Sequence record: LR746311
Reading direction: 5' to 3' (one strand)
Origin: Shigella phage vB_SsoM_113
Length of the DNA stretch: 64,000 nucleotides
Below the pieces are notes generated by a model. That model was not told where the DNA came from, did not search any database, and worked only from the letters and a program-made list of their open reading frames with translations. Below, one piece after another: positions 2,445 through 7,415 of this stretch. A program made the position numbers and the translations under genes. Positions within the stretch are counted from its first letter, which is position 1, and each line of letters opens with the position of its first letter.

Positions 2445-3008
2445 ATGAAAACCTATGCCGAATTTTTAACCGAAGCAGCAAAATTACCATCTGAAGCAGA
2501 TCTTACTAAAGTATTCTTCCACTTGGACCCAAAAGACCGCGGCGATTTTCTTAAGTGGAAAGCTAAAGCTATTGAAATGTACAACATCGATAATAGTTCT
2601 TTTACAATGAGTCAAGAAAATAAATTCAATAAAGCATTTTTCAAAATTTCTAAGAAATTGGCATCTGGCGCTCAGGTTCCTAAATCTGTATTAGCTACTC
2701 CTGAACGTGCACCTGTTAAAATTTCTAAGAATATGTTCGACACTAAAAAATACGTTAATGCTTTGAATAAAGCTCTTGATGCATTGGATGATGCAAAGAA
2801 GGCAGCCCGCGATCTTCAAGACGTGTACACCGATTTTGACCGCAAAACTAAAGGTTCTATTTCAAATAGCGAACGCAATAGTGTAAGTGTTTATTCTGAT
2901 AGCCTTGATGTTCTTGGCGATGCGTATACTGAAATTAAAAATCGTATTAACACTGCATCTAAGCTAAAAGCTGCTGCAGAAGCTATAATAACTAAACTAG
3001 GTAAATAA
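2445..3008 (+). CDS. internal head protein-like (capsid targeting sequence at N-terminus)
   Basis: N-terminus MKTYAEFLTEAAKLP; basic and Lys-rich; terminator hairpin follows. Confidence 0.7.
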   Translation: MKTYAEFLTEAAKLPSEADLTKVFFHLDPKDRGDFLKWKAKAIEMYNIDNSSFTMSQENKFNKAFFKISKKLASGAQVPKSVLATPERAPVKISKNMFDTKKYVNALNKALDALDDAKKAARDLQDVYTDFDRKTKGSISNSERNSVSVYSDSLDVLGDAYTEIKNRINTASKLKAAAEAIITKLGK

Positions 3009-3041: not shown

Positions 3042-3164
3042 GGTATTTAGGCCTTTCTGGACCTCTCTAGGCATCATTTAGTTTATACCCTTTATAATAT
3101 ATTATCCTATCCTTTAATTGCCCATCCCTGCCCTAGAATTCCCTAAAAATTTTTTCACAAAACT

Positions 3165-3194
3165 GTTTACATCTCTGTTCTTCCATGGTACTAT
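3165..3194 (+). promoter_or_regulatory. T4-type early promoter (GTTTAC ... TGGTACTAT)
   Basis: A/T-rich upstream TTTTTCACAAAA, -35 GTTTAC, 18-bp spacer, extended -10 TGGTACTAT; part of a cassette repeated elsewhere. Confidence 0.7.
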
Positions 3195-3237
3195 ACAACT
3201 ATCAACTACTGATATAGAAAACAACTTGGAGAATGAA

Positions 3238-3501
3238 ATGGATAATTACGGCGAACTGTTCAACTTCTTTATGAAATGCGTTTCAGAAGATTTCGGTCGT
3301 ACAGTGAATGATATTAAAGTTATCGGTCCTGATCATCCGATGTTTGAAACTTACGCAGTAATGGGTAATGAAGACGGTCAGTGGTATACTGTAAAAGTTG
3401 TGATTAATATGTTCACAGCAGAAGGTTATGTTAAACTGTCTTCTAAAGTTTACCACGATAACGACGAAATCGCAGAAGAATATTTCAATAATATGAAATA
3501 A
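3238..3501 (+). CDS. hypothetical protein (87 aa)
   Basis: ATG at 3238 with GGAG 6 nt upstream; the track ORF from 3118 would run through its own promoter. Confidence 0.6.
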   Translation: MDNYGELFNFFMKCVSEDFGRTVNDIKVIGPDHPMFETYAVMGNEDGQWYTVKVVINMFTAEGYVKLSSKVYHDNDEIAEEYFNNMK

Positions 3502-3949: not shown

Positions 3950-4543
3950 ATGAACACACTGAAGAAAATTGTTGAGTTTATTCGCACTAAACTTGGTTCT
4001 GCTATGGCTAAAAATTTATCTGTTGAAGAACAGTATACTGCTGCGGCAGCAAAACTACTTGATAAAATTAAAGATCTAAAAACTGCTTCTGTTAAATCTA
4101 TTAATGAAGAAAAACGTATTCGTGAACTTATTGTCGAAAAGAATCGACAGGCTGAATCAAAAGAGCGTGAAATTCGTAAACTTCTTTCCGAAGGTCAAGA
4201 TGTAACAATGCATGCTAAACTTGGTTTACTATATCGTCGAACAGCTGAGCAGTTGACTACTAAGGCTGACGGTTATGCTGAAATGCGAATTGAAATCGCC
4301 AAGAAAGTAGTTGAGTTAGATGATGCTCGTCAAGAGCTTGCAGTTAAATTGGAATATATCCGTGAAACTCGTGCGGCAAATGCCCTTGGAATTAGTACTG
4401 CAGATGATGTAGTTGAAATTGCAGCACTGACTAAGGTTGATATTGAAGATACCCTTGCTCGAGTTGAAACCTTTAATGGTAATATTTCTGGGGTTGAAAC
4501 TACCTCTGCCGATGTTCAGGAATACATTAATTCTCTGAAATAA
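3950..4543 (+). CDS. coiled-coil protein, possibly PspA/IM30-like (197 aa)
   Basis: Long heptad-rich helical sequence with a layout resembling E. coli PspA (recalled); SD AAGGAA upstream; PspA assignment is tentative. Confidence 0.6.
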
Positions 4544-4546
4544 TGA

Positions 4547-4566
4547 TAAGGGGCTTCGGCCCCTTA
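4547..4566 (+). terminator. terminator-like hairpin (weak U-tract)
   Basis: AAGGGGC-TTCG-GCCCCTT; trailing U-run is poor. Confidence 0.4.
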
Positions 4567-4584
4567 TACTTGGAGTAAATAGGA

Positions 4585-5559
4585 ATGAAAATGAAAATGC
4601 AAAGTGATTTCAATTCAATGTTTGAAGAGTTCCAAAGACAGGTTGATGTTCCAGACCAATTACTAAATGCTCTTAAACGCATGGCAGAAGGACGTAATTA
4701 CTATTGGGGGTCTTCATATGAAACCGATGAAAGCCTTTCCGGAAGATTTTCTAGAGGTAAAAAGTCTTTAATACGTCCTGGAATACTCATTAACAGTATT
4801 GAATCAATTCATTCATTGATGTGTGATTTTGATGTTGAATTTACTGATTTCATTTCTCCTGAATGGACGGTTTGTTATTTAAACGACGATTATGATTATC
4901 TTGGCGTTTATAGTTTAAGTGATGCATGGTTTAAACGTAATTTACAAAAATCAAATTTATTTTATATTGATACTACGGTAAAATTTCAGGGAAAGAAATA
5001 TTTCTTTACTCTTATAGTTGACTCTGAAACAAAATATGAAAATAAGCGTATTCTTAGTAAAAAGAATATCTTAACTATTGTTGATGATCTTTTTGATAAA
5101 TTCGTAGAAAATCCCAATTTTGAAAGCGATTTATTATTAGAAAATTTGTTAAGGAATGTAGAGAATATGTCAAAGCCATCACTATACCTTCCAAGTAAAC
5201 CTGTGAAGTATGAACCAAAGCGTCAGCTAATTTCTACTGATGTGTTAATAGGTCCTGTGGTAGCTGTATCATTTGTGATTTTGGTGATTGCTGGAATGGT
5301 TATAGACGTTATGACTGATATTGAATCTGGTGTAATATTTGGAGCAACACTAATTCTTCCATTGGTAGTTCCGCTTTTATTAGTACCTGTAAATTGGGTA
5401 GGATACTGGTATCAAGGAAGACATTATCGTAAACGTGTACGTGATTGGAAAGCTCAGTGTAAAAAGATTAAAAAGGAACACCAGCTTAAGCTAGATATGT
5501 ATGAATTTGATGAAATTATGAAATTTGTTAAGGAATCACGATGCAAAAGCCAAAACTAA
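4585..5559 (+). CDS. membrane-anchored protein (324 aa), C-terminal TM segments
   Basis: ORF track; hydrophobic stretches near residues 210-270; charged tail containing Cys. Confidence 0.65.
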   Translation: MKMKMQSDFNSMFEEFQRQVDVPDQLLNALKRMAEGRNYYWGSSYETDESLSGRFSRGKKSLIRPGILINSIESIHSLMCDFDVEFTDFISPEWTVCYLNDDYDYLGVYSLSDAWFKRNLQKSNLFYIDTTVKFQGKKYFFTLIVDSETKYENKRILSKKNILTIVDDLFDKFVENPNFESDLLLENLLRNVENMSKPSLYLPSKPVKYEPKRQLISTDVLIGPVVAVSFVILVIAGMVIDVMTDIESGVIFGATLILPLVVPLLLVPVNWVGYWYQGRHYRKRVRDWKAQCKKIKKEHQLKLDMYEFDEIMKFVKESRCKSQN

Positions 5560-5903
5560 ATAAAGTCAAATATTCGTTTCCTGAGGCACTATTAATTCTT
5601 GCTGTATCAGTATTTGCAGCTCTTGCGGGTAGTCTTATTGGATTGTTAATTGACTGTTTTATTTTAAACATCGATAGTTCAGCAATTATAACAGATGTTT
5701 GGAGTGAACTTCGTTTTACTATAGCGATTTCATTATTTTCATTCTTTGGTACCATGTTATATTTTCATTATGATAATTTTAAAATAAATTGGCAAAGAAA
5801 AAAGGATTACAAAATACAATTAAAGGAATATAATAGCTATATGTCTTATATTGAAAAAGAATCAATGGAAGAGTTTGTGAGTGATTGTAGGAAAATTAAA
5901 TGA
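5541..5903 (+). CDS. small membrane protein (120 aa)
   Basis: ORF track; two hydrophobic helices; tail ...CRKIK resembles neighbours. Confidence 0.6.
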   Translation: MQKPKLNKVKYSFPEALLILAVSVFAALAGSLIGLLIDCFILNIDSSAIITDVWSELRFTIAISLFSFFGTMLYFHYDNFKINWQRKKDYKIQLKEYNSYMSYIEKESMEEFVSDCRKIK

Positions 5904-6388
5904 TTTTAAAAACTCGCTGGTATGATTTAGATGATGGGGACGATGGCATTTCAGTTGATAGAGTTGACTGGAGCGGCTGTTCTGAAGATACAAAGAAACG
6001 ATTAATTAGGGAGTTTAGAATGGGATATCAAGCAGTTAAGCCATCTACTGTAACAGATGATAAATTCGTGTGTATTCATAATGGTCGTGCTAAGTTAACG
6101 AATGCTGAATGGTTCACAGATAAGATTATGATTCTGTGGTATATCATTAGTCTTCCTGTGTCATCATTCGTATTTTACTTTTTTATAAAAAATCCAATGG
6201 ACAGAATAGGAGATTGGATTCTTTTAACCATACTTGTTAATATTTTTACAGCATCAATATTATCAGGAATATGGTACATGTTCATTGAAATGCCATGGCG
6301 GATGCGCAGACAACAAAAGATTTTTGATGAAAAGAAATATGCTCAAAATTTAAATAATTTTATCACTGAATGCAGGAAATTAAAATGA
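5900..6388 (+). CDS. membrane protein (162 aa)
   Basis: ORF track; two hydrophobic helices; tail ...ECRKLK. Confidence 0.6.
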   Translation: MILKTRWYDLDDGDDGISVDRVDWSGCSEDTKKRLIREFRMGYQAVKPSTVTDDKFVCIHNGRAKLTNAEWFTDKIMILWYIISLPVSSFVFYFFIKNPMDRIGDWILLTILVNIFTASILSGIWYMFIEMPWRMRRQQKIFDEKKYAQNLNNFITECRKLK

Positions 6389-6825
6389 AAACATTATCAG
6401 CTGGTATTATCTTTATGACAGAAGATAAAGATTTATTTATGGGACGAGTTACCGGTTCTCGTAAACCTGGAATGATGGCACATCGCTGGGATATTCCAAA
6501 GGGGCGTGTAGAAAGTTCTGATTTGAATGCACTGGAAGCTGCAAAAAGAGAATGCTCAGAAGAGACTGGTTTTATCGATTATAATCCAGACCTTCTAGAA
6601 GACTTAGGTGTATTTAAATATTCTAGTAATAAAGACTTACAGTTATTTTATTATACGATTCCAGTAGAGCATGAGATGTTTAGAAATTGCCATTGCGAGT
6701 CTTATTTTGAAAATAAAGATGGCGTTATGATTCCAGAGATGGATGCTTTTGCTCTTATTCCTCGTACTCAGTGGCAATATGTGATGGGTCCTTCACTTTA
6801 CCGAATAATGAACAACCTCTTTTAA
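6385..6825 (+). CDS. nudE: Nudix hydrolase
   Basis: Nudix box GRVESSDLNALEAAKRECSEETGF; immediately upstream of e, as T4 nudE (e.1). Confidence 0.75.
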   Translation: MKTLSAGIIFMTEDKDLFMGRVTGSRKPGMMAHRWDIPKGRVESSDLNALEAAKRECSEETGFIDYNPDLLEDLGVFKYSSNKDLQLFYYTIPVEHEMFRNCHCESYFENKDGVMIPEMDAFALIPRTQWQYVMGPSLYRIMNNLF

Positions 6826-7356
<531 letters not shown>

Positions 7357-7363
7357 AGCTATT

Positions 7364-7392
7364 TACTTTCTCCTAGAATTGTGATAGTATAT
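7364..7392 (+). promoter_or_regulatory. early promoter-like element upstream of denV
   Basis: -35-like ATTTAC, 17-bp spacer, TGTGATAGTAT extended -10. Confidence 0.5.
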
Positions 7393-7415
7393 TCACAGTT
7401 ACTTGGAGGGATAAA

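Follow-up and report, generated by a model that had tools for sequence, protein, structure and literature searches.

Three overlapping open reading frames (ORFs), at 4585-5559, 5541-5903 and 5900-6388 of a 64,000-nucleotide (nt) stretch of Shigella phage vB_SsoM_113 DNA (record LR746311; the whole stretch is called the window below), end in similar charged peptides, and they raise the question of what proteins are encoded here and why they should end alike. An original prediction, made from the sequence alone, took them to be three consecutive membrane-protein genes of one duplicated family. Our analysis assigns them to the T4 genes e.5, e.4, e.3 and e.2, three of which appear to encode small membrane hairpins, and identifies the terminal peptide as a module that is also carried by soluble proteins. 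As a whole, the findings are best explained, in our view and with moderate confidence, if this tail, on the cytoplasmic side, serves for docking to a common partner or for recognition by it.

The window belongs to a T4-like phage of the genus Tequatrovirus. The closest relative of bases 4400-7400 is Escherichia phage BW-1 (99.3% DNA identity), 586 T4-like phage records match this region, and the proteins are identical to those deposited for Shigella phage vB_SsoM_113. All three ORFs are present exactly at the coordinates first given. By comparison of the T4 and BW-1 gene maps, together with PHROG profiles, they are assigned as orthologues of T4 e.5 plus e.4 (4585-5559), e.3 (5541-5903) and e.2 (5900-6388). 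Small membrane proteins are therefore encoded here as predicted, but there are four genes and not three, since the first ORF is a fusion whose e.5 part is soluble. The features of these genes are as follows.

4585..5559, plus strand: fused e.5::e.4 ORF of 324 amino acids (aa); residues 3-191 match PHROG 2607 (E 3e-99) and residues 195-324 match PHROG 2604 (E 5e-69)
5141..5144, plus strand: run of four A (A4), a 1-nt deletion relative to five A (A5) in alignments with T4, BW-1 and four other relatives
5145..5162, plus strand: codons of the native e.5 tail, FVKECR, out of frame here, from the repaired-frame translation
5167..5559, plus strand: e.4, 130 aa, predicted two-helix membrane hairpin (5257-5313 and 5329-5385) with a basic cytoplasmic C-terminal region (Pfam PF26873)
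5524..5541, plus strand: e.4 tail motif FVKESR, overlapping the e.3 ribosome-binding site and ATG
5541..5903, plus strand: e.3, 120 aa, predicted two-helix membrane hairpin (5595-5651 and 5709-5765) with a cytoplasmic tail (PHROG 2330, E 2.4e-57; hydropathy)
5874..5891, plus strand: e.3 tail motif FVSDCR, from an alignment of 23 orthologues
5900..6388, plus strand: e.2, 162 aa, with a 75-aa N-terminal domain, a predicted two-helix hairpin (6131-6187 and 6215-6271) and a cytoplasmic tail (PHROG 2203, E 3.2e-77; Pfam PF26896)
6359..6376, plus strand: e.2 tail motif FITECR, followed by KLK and a stop that overlaps the nudE ATG

The family assignments extend over whole proteins. The e.5 family (PHROG 2607, Pfam PF26876) comprises soluble proteins of about 200 aa ending in ...EKFVKECREYVK... 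with a stop of their own. Directly after e.5, e.4 matches PHROG 2604 over profile positions 1-130 (E 5.4e-69); it was found in 680 phage records by tblastn, and its database matches carry PF26873. The match of e.2 to PHROG 2203 is likewise full length and includes the N-terminal W-x-x-LDDGD...VDWS domain; its orthologues are spread across Dhakavirus, Gaprivervirus, Kanagawavirus and Winklervirus, with 28-44% identity in VR5, VR7 and EcWhh-1. The 45 homologues of e.3 (72-93% identity) come from Tequatrovirus only, and a scan of IMG/VR with e.3 gave 4 loci only.

A common terminal peptide on dissimilar proteins

The tails are as the original prediction quoted them, and their resemblance is far beyond chance and strongly non-random. 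An anchored alignment of 29 distinct tails gives the consensus L-x-x-F-[IV]-K-E-C-R, with 0-11 further residues, most of them basic, before the stop codon; one such peptide is KKYAQNLNNFITECRKLK. With the aromatic residue as position 0, the counts are F23/W4/Y2 at 0, I16/V11 at +1, K18 at +2, E15 at +3, C17/I5/V4 at +4 and R28 at +5, while position -3 is L or I. Residues F112, D115, C116, R117 and K118 of e.3 are invariant among its 23 orthologues. Each tail does contain the one Cys noted earlier, but that of e.4 stands two residues later (FVKESRC) than those of e.3 (FVSDCR) and e.2 (FITECR).

A strict form of the motif, [FWY][IVL]xxCR within 12 residues of the C-terminus, was counted in 770 ORFs from the window and 11 diverged T4-like loci. 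It is present in 21 of them, against 0.39 expected by tail shuffling (maximum 2), and nearly all of the matches fall in the e cluster. In T4, e.5, e.3 and the frameshifted remnant of e.2 are the only places where the strict motif was found (156 kilobases, kb, scanned; the scan omitted 50-63 kb, the counterpart of which in the present phage probably lies within the scanned window). Throughout the 64-kb window it occurs only in e.3, in e.2 and in one unrelated ORF.

The equivalent regions of Mosigvirus, Dhakavirus, Gaprivervirus, Kanagawavirus, Winklervirus, Roskildevirus and Klebsiella phage Mexia were compared, and in these other genera three to seven successive small proteins carry the same terminal peptide. 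In all, about eight Tevenvirinae genera have the tail in their accessory region between the tRNA genes and nudE, where it ends at least five families of small proteins that are otherwise unlike one another; it is missing around nudE in Slopekvirus, Pseudotevenvirus and Serratia phage 92A1. Because the tail is also carried by non-membrane proteins, namely native e.5 and its distant counterparts, a 102-aa protein of Mexia encoded downstream of nudE and a 99-aa protein of Entb_45, it is a portable module and not the mark of a single membrane-protein family.

Other terminal peptides of this region were observed as well. The ends of e.6 (3950-4543) and e.8 (3238-3501; ...AEEYFNNMK) can be read as degenerate versions of the tail, with the pattern aromatic, aliphatic, x, x, hydrophobic, basic, and that of e.6 is conserved in five genera. 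A second tandem family of small proteins, located in the same accessory region of other genera, ends in G-x-W-[VIY]-S-S-S-x-x-C directly before the stop (L010:3492-4286, L012:445-2068, L016:2581-3413, L008:62-286 and L009:59-283); this peptide is absent from the window and from T4. Common C-terminal peptides thus seem to be a recurring theme of the accessory region.

Given that the genes overlap, the likeness of the tails might be a by-product at the DNA level, with the last codons of each gene encoding the Shine-Dalgarno sequence and start of the next one and the peptide itself having no function. Each tail in the window does lie no more than 25 nt 5' of the next ATG, and AAGGAA (K-E) and AGGAAA (R-K) are good Shine-Dalgarno sequences. 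Moreover, the e.5/e.4 and e.4/e.3 junctions are linked by a 22-nt direct repeat with 91% identity (local-alignment p 2e-4), and the DNA of the e.3/e.2 and e.2/nudE junctions also aligns (p 0.004). However, the position of the Shine-Dalgarno sequence shifts along the peptide, from E-E in VR5 and VR7 to K-E in e.5 and e.4, R-K in e.3 and e.2 and R-G-K in p000v, and F, I/V, C and R are kept regardless. The Arg codons in the tails are AGG, AGA, CGT, CGA and CGC, of which CGT, CGA and CGC are not purine-rich, and Cys is encoded by TGT and TGC. The motif is also kept where the next gene begins 11-99 nt downstream (the Mexia 102-aa protein, p000v e.4, a 109-aa protein of Gravdalen and VR5 gp127), and in the first three of these the stop codon does not overlap the next gene. 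The variable Arg and Cys codons, the shifting Shine-Dalgarno position and the occurrence of the motif without gene overlap indicate that the peptide itself is selected, and we consider a purely DNA-level origin improbable.

Membrane hairpins, their kinship and a proposed role of the tail

The prediction of hydrophobic helices in all three ORFs agrees with a Kyte-Doolittle scan, which found two each in e.4, e.3 and e.2 (residues 225-243 and 249-267 of the first ORF, 19-37 and 57-75 of e.3, and 78-96 and 106-124 of e.2) and none in e.5, the soluble part that makes up the first ~190 residues of the first ORF. Lys and Arg are abundant at both ends of these proteins and few or lacking in the short loop between the helices (N-terminus/loop/C-terminus counts of 5/0/15 for e.4, 4/0/10 for e.3 and 13/2/9 for e.2), which argues that both termini are cytoplasmic. 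The pattern implies that e.4, e.3 and e.2 are small helical hairpins of the inner membrane, as far as their sequences can tell. In contrast, e.5 is a soluble α/β protein; its AlphaFold2 model (predicted template-modelling score, pTM, 0.62), for which a NuoC/Nqo5-like fold was considered, has a tail helix at residues 181-196. Within Tequatrovirus, the column entropy is 0.33-0.42 bits in the helices and loop, 0.11-0.21 bits in the C-terminal region and 0.01-0.30 bits in the tail, with 0.01-0.02 bits for the tails of e.4 and e.2. The basic C-terminal region of 35-55 residues is therefore less variable within the genus than the membrane helices.

How closely the three hairpins are related is a separate question, and here the claim of a duplicated family, for which the three proteins were aligned, has weak support at the level of whole proteins. 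Similarity between e.4 and e.3 is weak but collinear over about 110 residues (BLASTP E 0.004; hhalign P 5e-4, probability 31%), an e.4 profile finds e.3 at E 0.003 (hmmsearch among the 770 local ORFs), and the two N-termini are alike (MSKPSL and MQKPKL). By comparison, the alignment of e.2 with e.3 is confined to the last 14 residues and that of e.2 with e.4 is not significant (hhalign P 0.02), so that e.2 is linked to the others only by the tail and by an architecture common to all three, consisting of two membrane helices, a basic cytoplasmic region and the tail motif. The e.2 profile does reach two-helix proteins of the cluster in other genera, i.e., a 124-aa protein of FBB1 (E 4e-7), a 101-aa protein of p000v (E 7e-4) and a 98-aa protein of Mexia (E 3e-3). 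Tandem duplication followed by divergence is plausible for e.4 and e.3 from these alignments, and it is not proven for all three. A joint alignment of e.5 and e.4 was dropped, as MAFFT pulled the C-terminal half of e.5 onto e.4 via the common tail.

Two database proteins and one locus outside Tequatrovirus touch on the history of these genes. In P0214, residues 1-31 of e.4 are joined in frame to the C-terminal half of e.2, and P0209 is an e.4 without both membrane helices; both look like in-frame deletion products and could be real recombinants or assembly artefacts. At the end of e.4 in Mosigvirus p000v (L010:3375-3393), ATG CAA AAG CCT TAA encodes MQKP and a stop. Mosigvirus is without e.3, and this stretch resembles an e.3 start cut after four codons; it could be a relic of that gene or simply follow from the conserved e.4 tail.

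If the genes arose from one another, the tails might simply be inherited, left over from gene conversion and tandem duplication among adjacent paralogues and without any special role. The collinear similarity of e.4 and e.3, including their N-termini, the repeats at the gene junctions of a single genome and the chimeric arrangement of P0214 would all fit such a history. However, the tail is the best-conserved part across genera, where the remainder has diverged beyond recognition, and it is found on unrelated soluble folds such as e.5. Neutral remnants would not remain so constant over about eight genera, nor would they be expected to show the low tail entropy of e.4 and e.2 next to that of their helices. 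We hold this explanation to be rather remote.

We favour instead the tail as a docking peptide, an idea which fits its presence on unrelated N-terminal modules. Early in infection, the tail would act as a cytoplasmic docking or recognition peptide, through which these mostly membrane-anchored proteins would engage one common partner of phage or host origin, and the variable N-terminal parts would supply differing activities or anchoring. VR7 has a single such tail in its 6.5-kb locus, and the shared partner is therefore probably not another tailed paralogue. A wider form of this proposal, which we put forward only tentatively, is that T-even-type phages have in this tail a portable C-terminal signal for targeting or docking, not recognised before, by which soluble e.5 and a changing set of hairpins (e.4, e.3, e.2 and those that take their place in other genera) would be recruited to one inner-membrane partner or complex early in infection.

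Several points count against the docking proposal and the protein models on which it draws. Every tail in T4 and in the window overlaps the ribosome-binding site of the next gene, and part of the K-E or R-K preference may lie at the DNA level. Whole-protein homology among e.4, e.3 and e.2 is marginal, and the topology is a prediction from hydropathy and the positive-inside rule. For e.2, the AlphaFold2 model is a poor one of low confidence (predicted local distance difference test, pLDDT, 50), with helices at 69-96 and 99-161; the first membrane helix is visible in it, and the second runs on as a single helix to the C-terminus. The AlphaFold2 models are of monomers. The tail is not strongly amphipathic (hydrophobic moment ~0.3, shuffle p 0.14-0.26), and a classical amphipathic helix is not supported by the hydrophobic moment. 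Finally, about one third of the tails have I, V or L in place of the Cys at +4, a position that thus probably serves packing rather than catalysis or metal binding.

The basic ends of the tails could also have another meaning. One class of C-terminal recognition signals of ClpX is basic, like the terminus of MuA. The tail might accordingly be a turnover signal, a basic C-terminal degron for a host protease such as ClpXP or FtsH, so that these early proteins would persist for a limited time only. The tails have exposed basic ends (RKIK, RKLK, RRK and RK), the genes are early and dispensable, and the basic class of ClpX signals provides a lead. However, the best-conserved residues (L, F, I/V and C/I/V) sit upstream of the basic end, and anything from 0 to 11 residues separates the motif from the C-terminus, which would be unusual for a degron that is read from the free carboxyl group; we regard a degron as unlikely. 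Control of termination and re-initiation by the nascent peptide was rejected, as the distance from the motif to the stop varies from 0 to 11 codons. A ribosome-binding-site by-product, a degron, neutral paralogy and termination control are each judged less likely than docking.

The frameshift that joins e.5 to e.4

T4, BW-1 and four further relatives read GAAAAAT where the window reads GAAAAT, at 5141-5144. T4 and BW-1 are annotated with e.5 and e.4 as two genes that overlap by 32 nt. With A5, e.5 ends in ...LLLEKFVKECREYVKAITIPSK directly before its stop, and e.4 begins at its own ATG (5167) in another frame. With A4, e.5 reads on into e.4 and loses its C-terminal 15-20 residues and stop. Putting one A back yields an e.5 of 204 aa. 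The A5-to-A4 deletion thus fuses e.5 in frame to e.4, and on these alignments the ORF at 4585-5559 is better described as two genes, one for soluble e.5 and one for the membrane protein e.4, than as one membrane-protein gene.

The four-A variant is unique, for none of 493 phage records is 100% identical to the window over the A4 stretch. No other 324-aa protein is among the matches listed in word-indexed protein searches, and the matches listed for a polyprotein profile are close Tequatrovirus relatives. An exhaustive phmmer search with the fused ORF as query through 1.84 billion representatives gave 12 relatives in total, none of them an e.5-e.4 fusion. The relatives found are separate e.5-like or e.4-like proteins only. 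Either a mutation of this strain or a sequencing error in the homopolymer may underlie the deletion. A programmed frameshift, or a natural fusion that recurs in these phages, is not supported, as the fused form is seen in 0 of the 493 records, no fused protein was found and the run is only A4 or A5.

The 324-aa ORF could nevertheless be a genuine, expressed fusion in this strain, in which a covalent tether of e.5 to the membrane hairpin substitutes for docking by the tail. Against the two closest relatives, the deletion is the sole indel over 3.9 kb, and the deposited genome annotates the 324-aa protein (CAA7537449.1). The own ATG and upstream sequence of e.4 are retained, and the order e.5 then e.4 is kept in five lineages. 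On the other hand, the variant is a singleton among the 493 records, it lies at a homopolymer site typical of sequencing error, no natural counterpart appears among the 1.84 billion representatives, and the fusion destroys an otherwise invariant e.5 tail. We consider a real fusion possible, though doubtful.

Other homopolymer runs in this region differ between phages in a similar way. At 6187-6192, the window and BW-1 have A6 and the T4 reference (L001 and L007) has A5, which cuts T4 e.2 to 102 aa; the downstream remnant in T4 still encodes a perfect ...NNFITECRKLK tail. The deletion in e.5 here, together with the one that truncates e.2 in T4, indicates that these genes tolerate disruption. 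A second site at which the window has A4 and BW-1 has A5, at 3217, is 5' of the e.8 start annotated in BW-1 and is non-coding under that start, while a longer ORF with a TTG start (3118-3501) would span it. The fused protein also has a consequence for databases, as it merges the e.5 (about 200 aa) and e.4 (130 aa) proteins into one cluster at 90% identity.

Gene neighbourhood, function and known systems

Upstream of e.5 are e.6, e.7, e.8 and the tRNA cluster. Downstream of e.2, the order is nudE, the T4-type lysozyme gene e and denV, in agreement with the predicted position just upstream of nudE (NUDIX E 4e-13) and the lysozyme gene. The adjoining features are the following.

3950..4543, plus strand: e.6, 197 aa, conserved and largely helical (PHROG 1203; alignment)
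4546..4567, plus strand: UUCG hairpin, GGGGC-UUCG-GCCCC, between e.6 and e.5 (fold energy -15.6 kcal/mol, z -3.5)
6385..6825, plus strand: nudE (e.1), Nudix hydrolase, which closes the overlapping block (Pfam NUDIX E 4e-13; T4 annotation)

The hairpin is also annotated as a stem_loop in the T4 record L13089, and it marks the beginning of the e.5-to-nudE block. e.6 is directly 5' of e.5 in every genus that has e.5, and the trio e.6-e.5-e.4 is kept in five lineages. The stop-start overlaps, which were predicted to couple translation, are indeed compatible with it: they measure 19 nt between e.4 and e.3 and 4 nt (ATGA) at both 5900-5903 (e.3/e.2) and 6385-6388 (e.2/nudE), and AAGGA or AGGA lies 6-8 nt 5' of each ATG, inside the preceding gene. 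The genes e.5-e.4-e.3-e.2-nudE form one early block of overlapping genes, which is probably coupled in translation. Two alternative starts of nudE, MQEIKMKT... at 6370 (T4 RefSeq, 151 aa) and MKTLS... at 6385 (BW-1 and L13089, 146 aa), both overlap the e.2 tail.

What these proteins do was sought by several routes. Scans of e.5, e.4, e.3, e.2 and e.6 with Pfam-A, NCBIfam and PADLOC gave nothing above noise, Protein Data Bank (PDB) sequence searches with e.6 and e.5 gave no matches, and no similarity to T4 Imm, Sp, Ac, rIII or gp55.8 was detected (best BLASTP E 1.7). Database records name e.3, e.4, e.5 and e.6 variously as 'sulfurtransferase', 'site-specific RNA endonuclease', 'host specificity protein' and 'DNA primase', all without domain evidence. 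In particular, the sulfurtransferase (rhodanese) label of e.3 and e.4 has no such Pfam or NCBIfam match at E values up to 1-10, and these proteins are membrane hairpins of 120-130 aa. A resemblance of e.6 to PspA/IM30, in which the hairpins would be PspB/C-like partners, was also not supported (hhalign P 0.33 against a PspA sequence; no PspA match in PDB or Pfam). In a CRISPRi-ART study of T4, all guides against e.2-e.6 are labelled 'Not Fit', which we read as no fitness defect upon knockdown, and the supplement annotates e.2-e.4 as 'predicted membrane protein' (PMC11879866). The T4 reference genome itself has a shortened e.2. The e genes are accessory and dispensable for growth on laboratory E. 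coli, and no functional study of e.2-e.5 was found in the literature searched.

The genes themselves are already catalogued, the T4 ORFs having been on record for thirty years either as hypothetical proteins or as predicted membrane proteins. The conserved tail is apparently undescribed and represents a modest new lead. It offers a handle on function, as it joins soluble and membrane proteins of one accessory cluster in many T4-like genera and is under selection at the protein level; if one tail partner exists, it would suggest a role for a whole block of T-even dark-matter genes at once. Two corrections to existing records also follow, in that the 324-aa ORF should not be taken as a single gene and that 'sulfurtransferase' is unsupported for e.3 and e.4.

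Among known systems, the direct orthologues are T4 e.5-e.2 (msp4-msp7 in GenBank L13089; PHROGs 2607, 2604, 2330 and 2203; PF26876, PF26873 and PF26896). Protein identity to T4 is 79-90% for e.4, e.3 and e.2, and the genes have the same order and overlaps in both phages and likewise stand between the tRNA cluster and nudE/e, whereas e.5 and e.4 are fused in the window and e.2 is full length here (162 aa) instead of frameshifted to 102 aa as in the T4 reference. The original prediction speculated on a role in superinfection exclusion or envelope remodelling, and a role of this kind is known from T4 Imm (superinfection immunity). T4 Imm, Sp, Ac and gp55.8 are likewise small early proteins, and Imm is also a two-helix inner-membrane protein; however, Imm is without the F-I-K-E-C-R tail and without sequence similarity to the e proteins at the BLASTP level given above.

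Short conserved C-terminal peptides that bind a hub, placed at the end of a helical or flexible segment, are known from FtsZ and from the tail of SSB. The FtsZ peptide has a hydrophobic triad at -3, 0 and +1 followed by basic residues (I-P-A-F-L-R-K). This triad resembles the L-x-x-F-I of the e tail, but the likeness comprises three residues only and the spacing of the basic residues differs, so that we treat it as a lead. The internal proteins of T4 provide a further comparison, as they carry the N-terminal capsid-targeting sequence MKTYQEFIAE, which is cleaved by the prohead protease. A similar start, MKTYAEFLTEA, is found in the window in the ORF at 2445-3008, which probably encodes an internal head protein, judging from this N-terminus. 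The capsid-targeting sequence is N-terminal, cleaved and directed to the capsid, while the e tail is C-terminal and mostly borne by membrane proteins, and the relation between them is one of analogy and not homology. Nevertheless, in the capsid-targeting sequence a short terminal peptide on unrelated accessory proteins of one variable region leads to one destination, which is the same principle as that proposed here for the e tail.

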